This document shows, one piece after another, positions 1 to 4,364 of a DNA stretch of 4,364 nucleotides. Source of the DNA: a virus (taxonomy: Duplodnaviria > Heunggongvirae > Uroviricota > Caudoviricetes). The DNA is taken from the IMG/VR virus record IMGVR_UViG_2534681675_000009; one strand, written 5' to 3'. Both the position numbers and the translations under genes were made by a program. A model generated the notes under the pieces. It had not been told where the DNA came from. It ran no database searches and saw only the letters and a program-made list of their open reading frames with translations. The stretch's first letter is position 1. The number at the start of each line of letters is the position of its first letter.

Positions 1-453
1 ATCGGCAGCGCCATTGGCGGTGCTGCCGGTGGCGGCTCATCAGCGTCAGGTGGTACAGCCATTCAGGCAGCTGCGGCGAAATTCCATTTTGCGACCGGAG
101 GATTTACGGGAACCGGCGGCAAATATGAGCCAGCGGGGATTGTTCACCGTGGTGAGTTTGTCTTCACGAAGGAGGCAACCAGCCGGATTGGCGTGGGGAA
201 TCTCTACCGGCTGATGCGCGGCTATGCCACCGGTGGTTATGTCGGTACACCGGGCAGTCTGGCTGACAGCCGGTCGCAGGCGTCCGGGACGTTTGAGCAG
301 AATAACCATGTGGTGATTAACAACGAAGGCACGAACGGGCAGATAGGGCCACAGGCGCTGAAGGCGGTTTATGACGTAGCCCGTAAGGCGGCAATGGATG
401 TTGTGACCGGGCAGATGCGCGATGGTGGTCTGTTCTCCGGAGGTGGACGATGA
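1..453 (+). CDS. H: Tail tape-measure protein, C-terminal fragment (5'-partial; frame 1 is open from nt 1, stop TGA at 451-453)
   Basis: Frame 1 is open from the window edge. Translation is Gly/Ala/Ser-rich (IGSAIGGAAGGGSSASGG...GNLYRLMRGYATGGYVGTPGSL...GGLFSGGGR*), typical of a tape-measure C-terminus. It sits immediately upstream of M-L-K-I-J, and its stop overlaps the M start (ATGA at 450-453). Recognised from memory as lambda gpH-like. Confidence 0.85.
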   Translation: MGSAIGGAAGGGSSASGGTAIQAAAAKFHFATGGFTGTGGKYEPAGIVHRGEFVFTKEATSRIGVGNLYRLMRGYATGGYVGTPGSLADSRSQASGTFEQNNHVVINNEGTNGQIGPQALKAVYDVARKAAMDVVTGQMRDGGLFSGGGR

Positions 454-779
454 AAACCTTCCGCTGGAAAGTGAAACCCGGTATGGATGTGGCTTCGGCC
501 CCTTCCGTCAGGAAGGTGCGCTTTGGTGATGGCTATTCCCAGCGTGCGCCTGCCGGGCTGAATGCCGACCTGAAAACGTACAGTGTGACGCTTTCCGTGA
601 CCCGGGAGGAGGCCCGGCATCTGGAGTCGTTTCTGGCAGAGCACGGGGGCTGGAAGGCCTTTCTGTGGACGCCGCCTTATGCATACCGGCAGATAAAGGT
701 GACCTGCGCAAAATGGTCGTCGCGGGTCAGTATGCTGCGTGTTGAGTTCAGTGCAGAGTTTGAACAGGTGGTGAACTGA
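450..779 (+). CDS. M: Minor tail protein M (tail tip assembly), 109 aa
   Basis: ATG at 450 overlaps the H stop. The 109-aa product (MKTFRWKVKPGMDVASAPSVRKVRFGDGYSQRAPAGLNADLKTYSV...) has the same length and position as lambda gpM. GC-rich, in phase with flanking genes. Confidence 0.9.
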   Translation: MKTFRWKVKPGMDVASAPSVRKVRFGDGYSQRAPAGLNADLKTYSVTLSVTREEARHLESFLAEHGGWKAFLWTPPYAYRQIKVTCAKWSSRVSMLRVEFSAEFEQVVN

Positions 780-1477
780 TGCAGGATATCCGGCAGGAAA
801 CACTGAATGAATGCACCCGTGCGGAGCAGTCGGCCAGCGTGGTGCTTTGGGAAATCGATCTGACAGAGGTCGGTGGAGAACGTTATTTTTTCTGTAATGA
901 GCAGAACGAAAAAGGTGAGCCGGTCACCTGGCAGGGGCGACAGTATCAGGCGTATCCCATTCAGGGGAGCGGTTTTGAACTGAATGGCAAAGGCACCAGT
1001 ACGCGCCCCACGCTGACGGTTTCTAACCTGTACGGTATGGTCACCGGGATGGCGGAAGATCTGCAGAGTCTGGTCGGCGGAACGGTGGTCCGGCGTAAGG
1101 TTTACGCCCGTTTTCTGGATGCGGTGAACTTCGTCAACGGAAACAGTGACGCCGATCCGGAGCAGGAGGTGATCAGCCGCTGGCGCATTGAGCAGTGCAG
1201 CGAACTGAGCGCGGTGAGTGCCTCTTTTGTACTGTCCACGCCGACGGAAACGGACGGCGCTGTTTTTCCGGGACGTATCATGCTGGCCAACACCTGCACC
1301 TGGACCTATCGCGGTGACGAGTGCGGTTATCACGGTCCGGCTGTCGCGGATGAATATGACCAGCCGACGTCCGATATCACGAAAGATAAATGCAGCAAAT
1401 GCCTGAGTGGCTGTAAGTTTCGCAATAACGTCGGCAACTTTGGCGGCTTCCTTTCCATTAACAAACTTTCGCAGTAA
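779..1477 (+). CDS. L: Minor tail protein L (tail tip assembly; C-terminal cysteine cluster), 232 aa
   Basis: ATG at 779 overlaps the M stop (TGATG at 777-781). The 232-aa product has the same length as lambda gpL. C-terminal Cys cluster (C173, C182, C205, C208, C212; nt 1295-1414) is consistent with the Fe-S-binding region reported for gpL. Confidence 0.9.
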   Translation: MQDIRQETLNECTRAEQSASVVLWEIDLTEVGGERYFFCNEQNEKGEPVTWQGRQYQAYPIQGSGFELNGKGTSTRPTLTVSNLYGMVTGMAEDLQSLVGGTVVRRKVYARFLDAVNFVNGNSDADPEQEVISRWRIEQCSELSAVSASFVLSTPTETDGAVFPGRIMLANTCTWTYRGDECGYHGPAVADEYDQPTSDITKDKCSKCLSGCKFRNNVGNFGGFLSINKLSQ

Positions 1478-1487
1478 ATCCCATTTT

Positions 1488-2231
1488 ATGACACAGACTG
1501 AATCAGCGATTCTGGCGCACGCCCGGCGGTGTTCGCCTGCGGAATCGTGCGGCTTCGTGGTGAGAACGCCGGAGGGAGACAGGTATCTTCCCTGCGTGAA
1601 TATCTCCGGTGAGCCGGAGGCGTATTTCCGGATGTCGCCGGAGGACTGGCTGCGGGCAGAAATGCAGGGTGAGATTGTAGCGCTGGTCCACAGCCACCCC
1701 GGTGGACTGCCCTGGCTGAGTGAGGCCGACAGGCGGCTGCAGGTGCAGAGTGATTTGCCGTGGTGGCTGGTCTGCCGGGGGGCGATTCACAAGTTCCGCT
1801 GTGTGCCACATCTTACCGGGCGACGCTTTGAGCACGGGGTGACGGACTGTTACACGCTGTTCCGGGATGCTTACCATCTGGCGGGGATTGAGATGCCGGA
1901 TTTTCATCGCGGGGATGACTGGTGGCGTAACGGCCAGAATCTCTATCTGGATAATCTGGAGGCCACAGGGCTGTATCAGGTGCCGTTGTCAGCGGCGCAG
2001 CCGGGCGATGTGCTGCTGTGCTGTTTTGGTTCATCTGTGCCGAATCATGCCGCCATTTACTGTGGTGACGGCGAGCTGCTGCACCATATTCCTGAACAAC
2101 TGAGCAAACGAGAGAGGTATACCGACAAATGGCAGCGACGCACACACTCCCTCTGGCGTCACCGGGCATGGCACGCATCTGCCTTTACGGGGATTTGCAA
2201 CGATTTGGCCGCCGCATCGACCTTCGTGTGA
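1488..2231 (+). CDS. K: Tail tip assembly protein K, two-domain (N-terminal JAMM/MPN-like metalloprotease motif + C-terminal NlpC/P60-like cysteine peptidase); 247 aa if started at the first ATG after L, with an alternative internal start at 1632 (199 aa)
   Basis: ORF in frame with the track entry 1407..2231; first ATG after the L stop is 1488 (MTQTESAILAHARR...). JAMM-type motif H-x-H-x7-S-x2-D seen directly in VHSHPGGLPWLSEAD (nt 1689-1730). NlpC/P60-like Cys context GVTDCYTLF (Cys at 1848-1850) and downstream His-rich NHAAIYCGDGELLHHIP. No clear Shine-Dalgarno before either start. Confidence 0.85.
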   Translation: MTQTESAILAHARRCSPAESCGFVVRTPEGDRYLPCVNISGEPEAYFRMSPEDWLRAEMQGEIVALVHSHPGGLPWLSEADRRLQVQSDLPWWLVCRGAIHKFRCVPHLTGRRFEHGVTDCYTLFRDAYHLAGIEMPDFHRGDDWWRNGQNLYLDNLEATGLYQVPLSAAQPGDVLLCCFGSSVPNHAAIYCGDGELLHHIPEQLSKRERYTDKWQRRTHSLWRHRAWHASAFTGICNDLAAASTFV

Positions 2232-2770
2232 AAACGGGAGCCGAAGCCATCCGGGCGCTGGCCACGCAGCTACCGTCGTTTCGCCAGAAACTGAATGAGG
2301 GCTGGTATCAGGTGCGCATTGCCGGGCGTGATGCAGGCGAAAACGAATTATCTGCCCGTCTTAATGAGCCGCTGGCAAATGGTGCCGTGATCCACATCGT
2401 ACCGCGTCTGGCGGGTGCCAAAAGTGGCGGTGTTTTTCAGGCAGTGCTGGGTGCGGCGCTGATTGCTACGGCAATCTGGATGCCGGGAATCAGTATCGCT
2501 TTCAGTGACATTCTCTTTTCTATGGGGGCAGCGATGACGCTTGGTGGTGTTGCACAGATGCTGGCCCCTAAACCCAAAACTCCACGTACACAGACAACGG
2601 ATAACGGCAAACAGAACACCTATTTCTCCTCGCTGGATAACATGGTTGCCCAGGGCAATGTCCTGCCTGTTCTGTACGGTGAAATGCGCGTGGGGTCACG
2701 TGTGGCATCTCAGGAGATCAGCACGGCAGATGAAGGGGATGGTGGTCAGGTTGTGGTAATTGGGCGGTAA
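2129..2770 (+). CDS. I: Tail tip assembly protein I, 213 aa
   Basis: ATG at 2129 lies 103 nt inside the 3' end of K in a different frame, an arrangement I recall for lambda K/I. Product begins MAATHTLPLASPGMARICLYGDLQRFGRRIDLRVKTGAEAIRALATQLP... and ends ...DEGDGGQVVVIGR, with a hydrophobic central segment. Stop TAA at 2768-2770. Confidence 0.85.
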   Translation: MAATHTLPLASPGMARICLYGDLQRFGRRIDLRVKTGAEAIRALATQLPSFRQKLNEGWYQVRIAGRDAGENELSARLNEPLANGAVIHIVPRLAGAKSGGVFQAVLGAALIATAIWMPGISIAFSDILFSMGAAMTLGGVAQMLAPKPKTPRTQTTDNGKQNTYFSSLDNMVAQGNVLPVLYGEMRVGSRVASQEISTADEGDGGQVVVIGR

Positions 2771-2842
2771 TATTATTTACTCATGTTCTAACTGATTTAA
2801 TATTTATATCGAATACTGATAATTATTCTGTTGGTTAGCTAT
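2771..2842 (+). promoter_or_regulatory. AT-rich putative promoter region for the inserted lipoprotein gene (exact -35/-10 not resolved)
   Basis: 72-bp strongly AT-rich spacer between the I stop and the lipoprotein ATG. Contains several -10-like hexamers, e.g. GATAAT at 2818-2823, about 20 nt upstream of the ATG. No convincing -35 (only weak TTTAAT/ATTTAA-type matches). Call rests on composition and moron architecture. Confidence 0.3.
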
Positions 2843-3181
2843 ATGAACAAAACGATTTTATTCTGCACGATTATTGCCTTAACAGGATGTAAATCTTTGG
2901 ATTACGTAAAATCCGGAAAACCTGTAATGGAAGGTAATTCATTAAAAAATATTGATGAATTGTCAGGCTGCATATCCAGACAATGGGCTGGTAATGGAAC
3001 ACCTATAACATCCCTTCCTATTGAGAATGGGGTAAGCCTTTTAGTTCCACAGGCTATGGGTGGGTACGATGTTGTGCTTGATATCAAAAAAGCAGGAAAT
3101 GGCAGTAGTTTTACTCTTTATGAACGAGTACCAGCATTAACGCCAAAAATTTTTGCTGATAGTGTTAATGCATGTAAATAA
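2843..3181 (+). CDS. Small predicted outer-membrane lipoprotein of unknown function (moron gene), 112 aa precursor, ~97 aa mature
   Basis: ORF-track entry 2831..3181 begins at TTG; the in-frame ATG at 2843 gives a canonical lipoprotein signal: MNK (n-region), TILFCTIIA (h-region), lipobox L-T-G-C (nt 2879-2890), then Lys at +2. AT-rich with A/T-ending codons, contrasting sharply with flanking tail genes. Two more Cys in the mature part (LSGCIS and NACK). No recognisable SD. Sequence not recognised by me. Confidence 0.7.
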   Translation: MNKTILFCTIIALTGCKSLDYVKSGKPVMEGNSLKNIDELSGCISRQWAGNGTPITSLPIENGVSLLVPQAMGGYDVVLDIKKAGNGSSFTLYERVPALTPKIFADSVNACK

Positions 3182-3205
3182 TAGTTAATCCTGCCGTAAC
3201 TCATG

Positions 3206-3233
3206 AGCCGCCTTTTGGGCGGCTTTGTCGTTT
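3206..3233 (+). terminator. Rho-independent terminator-like hairpin between the lipoprotein gene and J
   Basis: Perfect 7-bp stem AGCCGCC (3206-3212) / GGCGGCT (3218-3224) with 5-nt loop TTTTG, followed by T-rich tract TTGTCGTTT (3225-3233). It starts 25 nt after the lipoprotein stop and ends 15 nt before the J ATG. Oriented for + strand transcripts (no U-tract on the other side). Confidence 0.55.
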
Positions 3234-3247
3234 ATGGAGTGTGAGGA

Positions 3248-4364
3248 ATGGGTAAAGGAAGCAGTAAGGGGCATACCCCGCGTGAAGCGAAGGATAACCT
3301 GAAGTCCACGCAGTTGCTGAGTGTGATCGATGCCATCAGCGAAGGGCCGGTTGAAGGTCCGGTGGATGGATTAAAAAGCGTGCTGCTGAACAGTACGCCG
3401 GTGCTGGACAGTGAGGGGAATACCAATATCTCCGGTGTCACGGTGGTGTTCCGTGCAGGTGAGCAGGAGCAGACACCGCCGGAGGGATTTGAATCCTCCG
3501 GCTCCGAGACGGTGCTGGGTACGGAAGTGAAGTACGACACGCCGATTACCCGGACCATCACGTCTGCAAACATCGACCGTCTGCGCTTTACCTTCGGTGT
3601 GCAGGCACTGGTGGAAACCACCTCAAAGGGGGACCGGAATCCGTCGGAAGTCCGCCTGCTGGTTCAGATACAACGTAACGGTGGCTGGGTGACGGAAAAA
3701 GACATCACCATTAAGGGAAAAACCACCTCACAGTATCTGGCCTCGGTGGTGGTGGGTAACCTGCCGCCGCGCCCGTTCAGTATCCGGATGCGCAGGATGA
3801 CGCCGGACAGCACTACAGACCAGCTGCAGAACAAAACGCTCTGGTCGTCATACACCGAAATCATCGATGTGAAACAGGGCTACCCGAACACGGCACTGGT
3901 CGGTGTACAGGTGGACTCGGAGCAGTTCGGCAGCCAGCAGGTGAGTCGTAATTATCATCTTCGCGGGCGCATTCTGCAGGTGCCGTCGAACTATAACCCG
4001 CAGACGCGGCAATACAGCAGTATCTGGGACGGAACGTTTAAACCGGCATACAGCAACAACATGGCCTGGTGTCTGTGGGATATGCTGACCCATCCGCGCT
4101 ACGGCATGGGGAAACGTCTTGGTGCGGCGGATGTGGATAAATGGGCGCTGTATGTCATCGGCCAGTACTGCGACCAGTCAGTGCCGGACGGCTTTGGCGG
4201 CACGGAGCCGCGCATCACCTGTAATGCTTACCTGACAACACAGCGTAAGGCGTGGGATGTGCTCAGTGATTTCTGCTCGGCGATGCGCTGTATGCCGGTA
4301 TGGAACGGGCAGACGCTGACGTTCGTGCAGGACCGGCCGTCGGATAAGGTGTGGACCTATAACC
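3248..4364 (+). CDS. J: Tail tip host-specificity protein J, N-terminal ~372 codons (3'-partial, runs off the window)
   Basis: ATG at 3248 preceded by GGAG/GAGGA (3236-3247). Open frame to the window end with no stop. Translation MGKGSSKGHTPREAKDNLKSTQLLSVIDAISEGPVEGPVDGLKSVLLNSTPVLDSEGNTN... recognised from memory as a lambda gpJ-type N-terminus. Position immediately after I fits. Confidence 0.9.
   Translation, partial: MGKGSSKGHTPREAKDNLKSTQLLSVIDAISEGPVEGPVDGLKSVLLNSTPVLDSEGNTNISGVTVVFRAGEQEQTPPEGFESSGSETVLGTEVKYDTPITRTITSANIDRLRFTFGVQALVETTSKGDRNPSEVRLLVQIQRNGGWVTEKDITIKGKTTSQYLASVVVGNLPPRPFSIRMRRMTPDSTTDQLQNKTLWSSYTEIIDVKQGYPNTALVGVQVDSEQFGSQQVSRNYHLRGRILQVPSNYNPQTRQYSSIWDGTFKPAYSNNMAWCLWDMLTHPRYGMGKRLGAADVDKWALYVIGQYCDQSVPDGFGGTEPRITCNAYLTTQRKAWDVLSDFCSAMRCMPVWNGQTLTFVQDRPSDKVWTYN

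Follow-up and report, generated by a model that had tools for sequence, protein, structure and literature searches.

A terminator-like stem-loop between a lipoprotein moron and tail gene J in a lambda-type late operon

The stretch of DNA analyzed here (4,364 nucleotides of IMG/VR virus record IMGVR_UViG_2534681675_000009, Caudoviricetes; hereafter, the window) carries a stem-loop a few nucleotides upstream of the tail gene J. The conservation and covariation of this hairpin in related phages are the strongest evidence that it is more than a chance fold. What we observed is a hairpin of defined structure, position, and orientation, which is conserved and covaries among relatives, whose allele in the window is linked to an insert, and which stands at a site where other inserts have repeatedly landed. 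We assign a probability of about 60% to the following reading: the hairpin is the prophage copy of a resident, selectively maintained I-J hairpin of the intrinsic-terminator type; a moron of ~430 bp lies 5' of its stem; the end of I, the moron, and the hairpin allele form one block; and the hairpin would insulate the moron from the tail genes in the lysogen. Other readings of its origin and role are weighed below, where the evidence that bears on them is given.

RESULTS

Layout of the window

A lambda-type tail operon fills the window, from the end of H through M, L, K, and I to the start of J (Table 1). I and J are separated by 477 bp in the window versus 60 bp in relatives. The flanks of this gap are ~92 to 94% identical to lambda, 434, and many lambda-like phages, whereas the GC content is 34% in 2771-3190 versus ~57% in the backbone. 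The gap DNA is thus extra DNA of deviating composition between otherwise adjacent genes, which is how a moron is recognized. The original prediction had described 3191-3247 as a GC-normal stretch of 57 bp, set apart from the AT-rich insert. Its GC content is indeed 54% against 34%, but this contrast is largely caused by the GC stem itself, and the spacer of insert-free lambda has only 47%. Positions 3194 and 3195 within it are polymorphic among insert-bearing copies.

Table 1. Coordinates of the features of the tail operon and of the I-J gap in the window
Feature	Position	Strand	Basis or remark
M	450-779		ORF list
L	779-1477		ORF list
K	to 2231		ORF list
I, tail tip assembly gene	2129-2770	+	~92% nucleotide identity to lambda I; 5' part overlaps K
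AT-rich leader of the insert with candidate sigma-70 promoters	2771-2842	+	PWM scores, GC content of 34%
Moron gene, 112-aa lipoprotein, phrog_914	2843-3181	+	ORF and phrog match
3' untranslated spacer of the moron	3182-3204	+	no homology to lambda I-J spacer (alignment with lambda, 434, and PhiR49)
Terminator-like stem-loop, GAGCCGCC-UUUUG-GGCGGCUU	3205-3225	+	fold, terminator scan, inverted repeat, insert linkage, covariation
Interrupted U-rich tail, UGUCGUUUA	3226-3234	+	common to insert-free I-J spacer
Ribosome-binding region of J: GGAG 3236-3239, GAGGA 3243-3247	3236-3247	+	
J, tail tip/host specificity gene, 5' part	3248-4364	+	ATG at 3248

Structure of the stem-loop and its tail

The arms AGCCGCC (3206-3212) and GGCGGCT (3218-3224) form a 7-nt inverted repeat with 100% complementarity around the loop TTTTG (3213-3217), exactly as the original prediction had placed them. 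Two wobble pairs, G3205.U3225 and U3213.G3217, extend the helix to nine pairs and reduce the loop to 3 nt. Folded alone, 3200-3236 gave −15.4 kcal/mol, compared with −6.85 ± 2.36 kcal/mol in dinucleotide shuffles (z = −3.62), and none of 200 shuffles was equally stable. Six of the seven perfect pairs are G-C and the loop is 3 to 5 nt long, which agrees with the GC-rich stem of ~5 to 14 bp and the short loop of intrinsic terminators. A terminator scan ranked the hairpin first of six terminator-like sites in the window, a number of sites that is no excess over shuffles (3.6 ± 2.0 expected).

The sequence that follows the stem is less typical. A U-rich tail is present (UUGUCGUUUA, 3225-3234), but the term "T-tract" used in the original prediction was generous, since the tail is interrupted after the two or three U that abut the stem. 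The U-run CUUUGUCGUUUA has three U before a G, one or two of which can pair, and five of its first eight positions are U. As a U-tract, CUUUGUCGUUU is weaker than the T6-T7 runs at the other sites of the same moron family, and the tail has a C/T polymorphism at 3229. A crude score of the d'Aubenton-Carafa type, computed with Vienna energies, was positive (7 to 18), but it depends strongly on the stem boundaries, known terminators score near zero with it, and we use it only qualitatively.

The hairpin is intergenic, on the + strand, 24 nt past the lipoprotein stop, and co-oriented with the lipoprotein gene, as a terminator of that gene should be. It is terminator-like on the + strand only: in the reverse complement the stem is followed by ATGAGTTACGG, with no T-run. 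The two ribosome-binding motifs of J lie immediately 3' of the hairpin, as had been noted before; GGAG, the Shine-Dalgarno sequence, is 11 nt past the stem and 8 nt ahead of the ATG. Close to it, T3240 is specific to the insert haplotype. The Rfam 15 covariance models gave no match at E ≤ 1 across the whole window, and our literature search turned up nothing on the I-J hairpin of lambda.

The same hairpin in insert-free relatives

A hairpin of the form AAACCGCC-TNCG-GGCGGTTT+TGTCGTTTATGGAG was found 22 nt ahead of the J ATG in every insert-free relative examined, namely, lambda, 434, more than 60 IMG/VR loci, Shigella, and Citrobacter. The original prediction held that absence of the hairpin from such relatives would make it part of the moron; it was present in all of them. 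Lambda has AAACCGCC-TGCG-GGCGGTTT, then TGTCATTTATGGAGCGTGAGGA, then the ATG, and the spacers of 434 and PhiR49 have the lambda stem with a TCCG loop. The curated record of 434 (OL657226.1) labels the hairpin "terminator" at 15466-15485, corresponding to ~15466-15485 in lambda (J02459). Only two terminators are annotated within Nu1..J in that record, the other one lying between D and E, and the equivalent GGAG is marked as an RBS. The window hairpin agrees with that of 434 and lambda in position, in strand, in its 8-bp GC-rich stem with the core CCGCC/GGCGG, in the 22 nt between stem and ATG, and in the tail and ribosome-binding region (TGTCGTTTATGGAG...GAGGA ATG). Its constant distance from the J ATG, its homologous tail, and its place after the I stop and before the J RBS make it the positional orthologue of the hairpin of these phages.

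The stem of the insert-free form hardly varies. A search with the I protein in IMG/VR yielded 80 loci, and the hairpin with an invariant stem was present in all 60 that have a spacer of 59 to 60 nt; Shigella and E. ruysiae loci have the same hairpin. Across 49 unique insert-free spacers, none of the 16 stem positions varied. Elsewhere in the spacer, 15 of 44 positions did so (Fisher p = 0.006), as did 59 of 100 third-codon positions within the neighboring 150 nt of I and J (p = 3e-6). This set was chosen by the hairpin pattern, with at most two mismatches, and its invariance is therefore partly built in. When IMG/VR spacers were extracted independently, the stem was again invariant. In Citrobacter werkmanii and C. 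meridianamericanus, the hairpin and TTGTCGTTT are identical to the E. coli form at 27 of 27 positions, although the J protein is only 66% identical and the remaining spacer cannot be aligned.

Distant lineages and covariation

Hairpins at the I-J junction extend beyond the close relatives of lambda. Among 77 IMG/VR loci of the Klebsiella/HK022 type with a callable J start, all 27 distinct I-J spacers bear a hairpin here, usually GGCCACC-TNGC-GGTGGCT followed by T7 and ATGG, right before J. The exceptions are AGCCACC in four inserted loci, an ACCGCC stem in one locus, and two variants with one stem mismatch. Kluyvera has AACCACC-TGCG-GGTGGTT, and locus L186 has GGCCACC-TTTG-GGTGGCT. An I-J hairpin is also present in HK022 and mEp043, where it abuts the J start directly; in Serratia phage OS31, with ~14 nt from the T-run to the ATG; in the Stx-type phage JLK-2012, ~40 nt upstream of J; and in virulent T1, directly past the I stop and ~50 nt ahead of J. 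I and J overlap in Burkholderia phage Bcep176, and there is no hairpin.

In an alignment of 17 distinct hairpins, 95.6% of the cells were paired, compared with 30 to 60% when the 3' partners were slid by 1 to 3 columns. Since these hairpins were hand-picked and trimmed on the hairpin, the pairing is partly built in, and the informative parts are the switches and the conservation of position. Two pairs covary on both sides (GC in 10 and AU in 6 hairpins for columns 3-19; AU in 10 and GC in 7 for columns 6-16), and all four combinations occur. In this hand-picked set, the helix is kept up across lineages by compensatory changes.

Linkage of the window allele to the insert

Compared with the canonical stem, the window has G for A at positions 1 and 3 of the 5' arm and a compensating C for T at 3223, so that A-U is replaced by G-C in the stem. 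The loop, UUUUG, is 1 nt longer than the canonical UNCG-type tetraloop (UGCG in lambda and UCCG in 434), and the stem is preceded by the 3' untranslated region of the moron, as opposed to an 18-nt spacer in lambda. The window hairpin is thus not the allele of the insert-free E. coli relatives that a spacer inherited in place would have.

Between 15 insert-bearing and 58 insert-free haplotypes, the fixed differences cluster at 2758-2769 and 3203-3240. Those at the end of I (2758, 2764, 2767, and 2769), where 2758-2770 reads GTAATTGGGCGGTAA versus GTGATTGGTCGCTGA, are all synonymous or in the stop codon. Outside the clusters, J has none farther in, and I has just one more fixed difference farther back, at 2706, and a partial one at 2662. 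The insert-linked 3' end of I is ...ATTGGGCGGTAA, and the insert-linked hairpin allele is AGCCGCCTTTTGGGCGGCT. An exact search for this allele gave 59 matches in IMG/VR, all with the insert, and 42 in JGI metagenomes, of which 40 had the insert and 2 were in unrelated soil contigs; the latter indicate that such terminator sequences are generic. The gapped pattern ATTGGNCGNTRA-N(8-38)-GCCGCCTTTTGGGCGGC for the insert-free allele had no match in IMG/VR and JGI metagenomes, and the I-end allele, searched alone, found insert-bearing loci only.

Because the fixed differences are clustered and the allele is seen only with the insert, the comparison of haplotypes indicates that ~2758-3240 (from the last codons of I through moron, hairpin, and tail to the Shine-Dalgarno sequence) is a block imported as one piece, the hairpin together with the moron. 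Of 5,426 complete E. coli genomes, 334 have the block; among deposited phage genomes, none does. The original prediction had considered that the moron might have inserted precisely between the I stop and a pre-existing hairpin; a precise insertion at the I stop does not hold, because the 18-nt 5' spacer of lambda is gone and 3191-3204 is unmatched in lambda. The accompanying suggestion that 3191-3247 is the ancestral I-J spacer survives in one respect, the homologous hairpin with the same register and tail in insert-free relatives, but fails in another, as the allele is linked to the insert and 3191-3204 has no counterpart in the lambda spacer.

Two further observations were set aside. Direct repeats flanking the insert (ACTCATG at 2779 and 3199; TTGGGCGG at 2760 and 3215) were considered as a target duplication or microhomology and rejected, since 11 such families occur in the same 521 bp, which leaves them indistinguishable from chance. 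The invariance of the hairpin among insert-bearing copies (0 of 21 sites) is uninformative, as merely 5 to 9% of insert sites vary anywhere.

The I-J gap as a site of cargo genes

Inserts of at least four kinds reach to within a few nucleotides of the stem: the phrog_914 lipoprotein gene, sodC, the genes of the HK022 gp22/23 type, and a reverse-strand gene of 183 aa. The hairpin stays beside J in L231 and L269, where HK022-like inserts have entered on its 5' side, and genes 22 and 23 of HK022 itself occupy the I-J gap, labeled "moron gene product" in AF069308, with the hairpin after them. This annotation means that the moron content of the I-J gap is already on record. In the Klebsiella-type lineage, I-J inserts of 667 and 867 bp with reverse-strand genes keep the hairpin. 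A reverse-strand sodC (phrog_1975) lies in the I-J gap of Citrobacter locus L163, where the canonical hairpin is kept beside J, and in the E. coli O157-type loci L061 and L077, where it is disrupted and a different hairpin (AATCACCG...CGGTGATT) follows the I stop. Independent morons (the Citrobacter sodC, HK022 gp22/gp23, and the inserts of L231 and L269) have thus landed 5' of the hairpin and left it beside J, which supports the earlier proposal that it pre-existed at the site. Judging from the loss of the canonical form before an intact J start in L061 and L077, the I-J hairpin is not indispensable.

The lipoprotein gene and the origin of the hairpin allele

The product of the moron gene has the lipobox LTGC with Cys16 and matches phrog_914 with E = 7e-33; it matched no Pfam, NCBIfam, or PADLOC family. 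Its AlphaFold2 model has a pLDDT of 84, and the best PDB match, the Francisella lipoprotein Flpp3, is weak (TM 0.52, E = 6e-3). No paper on this protein (WP_001332187) was found in the literature. Two candidate promoters in the leader, TTTACT-16-TAATAT (2776-2803) and TTTAAT-16-GATAAT (2796-2823), have some of the best scores in the window with a crude PWM, in DNA that is AT rich; a stricter sigma-70 consensus scan gave no + strand promoter in 2771-2842. The gene has no terminator other than the hairpin at 3205-3225.

Homologues of the lipoprotein with 50 to 62% identity occur in Klebsiella, Kluyvera, Enterobacter, and Jejubacter. Their genes are found at the K-I junction (L180, L186, and L188; Klebsiella and Kluyvera) and at the T-H junction (L184; Enterobacter), where the lambda genes overlap, and each of these copies is followed by a GC hairpin of its own plus a T6-T7 run, right before the RBS of the next gene. 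Of 78 Klebsiella-type loci, 75 have inserts of many kinds at K-I, most of which end in such a hairpin, and the 3 insert-free ones have a 31-nt spacer and no hairpin; the T-H junction was judged from the overlapping T and H of lambda alone. By this comparison, the K-I hairpin clearly belongs to the cargo. The T-H slot is that of HK97 gene 15, the first moron described, and a moron, as defined in print (PMC3594210), brings a promoter and a terminator of its own. In the K-I copies, the lipoprotein gene starts ~30 nt past K with no convincing promoter, which weakens the case for autonomous expression of phrog_914 lipoproteins.

In the window, the single hairpin after the lipoprotein gene coincides with the resident I-J hairpin, and its source can be read in two ways. 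It is conceivable, at odds of clearly less than even, that the stem-loop, wholly or in its 5' part, is the terminator of the moron itself, which replaced or recombined with the resident hairpin; the 5' arm, the loop, and C3223 would then come from the cassette, and the tail and the RBS from the backbone. The cargo hairpins of the homologues at K-I and T-H and the hairpin-free K-I spacers speak for such an origin, as do the presence of one hairpin rather than two, an allele that departs from a stem-loop otherwise invariant from E. coli to Citrobacter and was never seen without the insert, and a sequence 5' of the stem that is unrelated to the lambda spacer. Some moron terminators, such as AACCGCCGTCAGGCGGTTTTTTT in L231, closely resemble the I-J hairpin, a likeness that would favor a crossover within the stem, and a crossover between cassette and resident hairpin would explain a single allele-specific stem with a backbone-type tail. 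However, the resident hairpin has exactly this tail and this spacing to the J ATG, and the allele, with GC at both covarying pairs, is within the range of the I-J hairpins of other lineages, such as that of L186. Moreover, the synonymous changes imported at the end of I make the I-J hairpin of the donor an equally good source. Since the changes in I are synonymous only, they imply a donor that had the cassette downstream of a diverged I, which would be a diverged lambda-like phage already holding the cassette behind its own I. The window hairpin may be the I-J hairpin of that donor, and the resident hairpin of the donor lineage is the origin toward which we lean. The function would be alike under either origin.

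DISCUSSION

The combination of a moron gene, a terminator-like hairpin, and a late gene can be placed in the life cycle of a lambda-like prophage. On our preferred reading, that of a resident I-J hairpin serving as the terminator of the moron, an unmodified RNA polymerase would start in the AT-rich leader in the lysogen, transcribe the lipoprotein gene, and terminate, at least partly, at the hairpin and its U-rich tail, which would keep J and the downstream late genes silent. By analogy with lambda, the hairpin probably stops the lipoprotein transcript in the lysogen. Q-modified polymerase reads through terminators across the lambda late operon; during lytic growth, such a polymerase coming from pR' would pass the hairpin, and J would be translated from the GGAG Shine-Dalgarno sequence. 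Recombination within I and J on either side would spread the block among E. coli lambda-like prophages. What we infer here from the established biology of lambda are the activity of the promoter, the efficiency of termination, and the read-through under Q.

Insulation in the lysogen cannot be the sole role of the hairpin, because it is also present in virulent T1. This presence, together with the strong conservation in insert-free phages, suggests a further or different role in the late transcript, such as a barrier at an mRNA 3' end or a control of J dosage. Taken further, the hairpin would be an ancient and maintained punctuation element of lambda, HK022, Stx, Serratia, and T1 phages that chiefly controls the amount of J through mRNA 3'-end formation or processing or through translation, and its 5' base would be a privileged docking point for morons. 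On that account the main role would go beyond simple termination, as Q-modified polymerase ignores terminators; we regard it as doubtful.

Even less probable, in our view, is a hairpin that acts mainly at the RNA level in the late transcript, either as a 3'-end barrier that stabilizes the upstream tail mRNA or as a 5' stabilizer or translation modulator of J, and that helps to balance J against the tail proteins encoded upstream. A terminator should be ignored by Q-modified polymerase, yet the hairpin is conserved and covaries in insert-free phages; it exists in T1, and it always lies directly upstream of the Shine-Dalgarno sequence of J. The predicted probability that this sequence is unpaired also differs, being 0.16 for the lambda allele and 0.79 for the window allele. 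The lower stem predicted for lambda, in which the 5' spacer sequesters the Shine-Dalgarno sequence, is not supported by the haplotypes, in which the combinations U.G, U-A, CxA mismatch, and C-G all exist, and we rejected it. In addition, every lineage has a T-run after the stem, a feature that is specific to terminators and needless for a stability hairpin. A hairpin with no function of its own, being a relic terminator of an ancient moron or a conserved linker for the recombination of I and J modules, is very unlikely: mosaic joints at the spacer (a J of 44% identity joined right past the hairpin and GGAGCGT in L176; J replaced just past the hairpin in L052), the repeated insertion at the site, and the E. 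coli sodC-type loci that manage without the canonical hairpin would suit it, but compensatory changes keep the helix across lineages otherwise differing in sequence, the stem does not vary whereas the genes on both sides differ widely at synonymous sites, and the Citrobacter form is identical to that of E. coli despite the divergence of J.

We compared the arrangement in the window with known morons and lysogenic-conversion genes. The classical morons, as reportedly set out by Juhala et al. in 2000, are gene 15 of HK97 and genes 20, 22, and 23 of HK022. Like these, the window has an extra gene of deviating GC content between normally adjacent tail genes and a terminator-like hairpin at the border, and HK022 genes 22 and 23 are even situated in the same I-J gap and followed by an equivalent hairpin, AGCCACC-TTCG-GGTGGCT+T7. 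The window differs in its cargo, a phrog_914 lipoprotein gene, and in having a candidate promoter only. Also unlike the morons of HK97 and HK022, its gene points the same way as the late operon and can thus use the resident hairpin for its only terminator. The sodC morons of L061, L077, and L163 share the insertion site, and L163 also shares the hairpin beside J, but sodC is on the opposite strand and the hairpin is disrupted in the E. coli loci.

The lambda genes lom and bor are lysogenic-conversion genes that are bracketed by terminators in or next to the late operon. In the 434 record, terminators are annotated on both sides of a lom-like gene just downstream of J, at 18940-18966 and 19615-19642. 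The logic of the window may be likened to this one, with an envelope protein expressed in the lysogen that would be insulated from the tail genes by terminators read through under Q. The protein family and the position are different. According to the literature, lom is expressed in lysogens; the expression of the window lipoprotein is predicted.

The window hairpin is a new allele and a new context of a known kind of element, predicted as a terminator in 434 and associated with a moron site in HK022, and the architecture is that of an ordinary moron; current understanding is unchanged by it. Beyond the original prediction, the comparison adds that the hairpin before J is strongly conserved and covaries, that the position just 5' of it has repeatedly taken up cargo genes, and that the phrog_914 lipoprotein cassette occurs at three different junctions of the tail operon. 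These features may be of use in prophage annotation, for marking cargo slots and terminators inside tail operons. If the mechanism is true, the window would be another case of a temperate phage that fits cargo expressed in the lysogen into its long late operon and leaves that operon undisturbed, by placing the cargo before a terminator that stops ordinary polymerase but not the antiterminated form.

Cargo at the tail-operon junctions

Prophages of E. coli and Citrobacter carry a sodC moron in the same gap between I and J that holds the lipoprotein gene in the window. The canonical hairpin, that is, the form found in insert-free relatives, is retained in the Citrobacter sodC copy (L163) and is reduced to a remnant, GCGGTCGTTATATGG, in the E. 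coli sodC copies (L061 and L077), which also have a second hairpin, AATCACCG...CGGTGATT followed by GCTTT, after the I stop codon. In the tail modules of the Klebsiella/HK022-type loci, an even more heavily used cargo site is the K-I junction, with inserts of 367 to 891 bp and of many different kinds in 75 of the 78 loci. The majority of these inserts end in a GC hairpin and a T-run placed directly before the ribosome-binding site (RBS) of I, and all three insert-free loci of the 78, which have a 31-nt spacer (e.g., L270), lack a hairpin. The coordinates of these and other features are collected in the table.

Coordinates of cargo genes, hairpins, and associated features in the window and in the loci compared with it
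Feature	Locus	Coordinates	Position or note
K-I junction insert	L193-L272 (Klebsiella/HK022-type)	Mostly ~370-890 nt 5' of position 1501	K-I
sodC moron (Cu/Zn superoxide dismutase, phrog_1975)	L061 (E. coli)	2693-3393	I-J gap, reverse strand
sodC moron	L077 (E. coli)		I-J gap, reverse strand
sodC moron	L163 (Citrobacter)	3148-3860	I-J gap, reverse strand
phrog_914 lipoprotein gene	Window	2843-3181	I-J
phrog_914 lipoprotein gene	L180	2501-2839	K-I
phrog_914 lipoprotein gene	L184	2501-2842	T-H
phrog_914 lipoprotein gene	L186	2501-2815	K-I
phrog_914 lipoprotein gene	L188	2501-2839	K-I
112-aa lipoprotein gene	L322 (Serratia phage OS31)	527-865	Between K and I
22-codon ORF	Window	3234-3302	Overlaps J start; out-of-frame ATG (3234-3236) within conserved TTTATGG after stem
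Region with strong terminator-like hairpin, AACCCGC-CTTGC-GCGGGTT+T8	L319 (phage T1, virulent)	1480-1562	Directly after I homologue
Second annotated terminator of structural operon (Nu1..J)	L316 (phage 434)	6100-6120	Between D and major capsid gene E

Hairpins, joints, and variants

Hairpins at gene boundaries were also found in other phages. In T1, a TATAAT-like box follows the hairpin, about 45 nt before the tail fiber gene, an arrangement that suggests a transcription-unit boundary at I/J even without lysogeny. The D-E terminator of phage 434, the only one annotated in its structural operon besides that at I-J, is a second hairpin inside the operon that stands directly before the RBS of a gene.

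Mosaic joints fall exactly at the I-J spacer in two loci: in L176 (E. coli ECMA0423), a J of just 44% identity comes directly after the canonical hairpin and GGAGCGT, and in L052, unrelated DNA takes the place of J directly after the hairpin. In E. coli c1-17, the I-lipoprotein-J region (NZ_CP189959, 1932697-1934093) is split by an IS1 element. One insert-bearing contig (L192, ~11640-11660, minus strand) has an additional C in the 5' arm of the hairpin (GAGCCCGCC), which would be predicted to bulge the helix; the extra base could reflect either true variation or a sequencing error in a homopolymer. The TTTATGG motif recurs 3' of hairpins in many lineages; the 22-codon ORF that begins within it in the window is probably meaningless, because it has no Shine-Dalgarno sequence of its own.

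Among the matches in genome contigs, L150-L162, L166, L167, L174, and L178 carry lambda-identical DNA, including the lambda-specific TGTCATTT tail. These contigs are short, several are labeled with approximately 1x coverage, and they occur in assemblies of unrelated organisms, among them Neobacillus, Pseudomonas, Chromatium, Shewanella, Bradyrhizobium, Leeuwenhoekiella, and Paenibacillus. Almost certainly, these sequences are contaminating lambda DNA in publicly available genome assemblies.

The phrog_914 lipoprotein

The phrog_914 lipoprotein gene is mobile cargo, carried at three tail-operon junctions (I-J, K-I, and T-H) across different Enterobacteriaceae. Cys43 and Cys111 of its product are invariant, in addition to the lipobox Cys16. 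The protein's AlphaFold2 model reaches a pLDDT of 84, and its best-ranked PDB match, Francisella Flpp3, is weak. The lipoprotein of Serratia phage OS31 looks like a distant relative: its layout resembles that of the window's protein, with a C-terminal Cys and a Cys-containing motif that reads QCLAPKW where the window has GCISRQW, and its gene is followed by a hairpin, AACCCGC-TCCG-GCGGGTT+T5. Because the phrog_914 gene adjoins tail-tip genes, receptor masking and superinfection exclusion are candidate roles for the lipoprotein.
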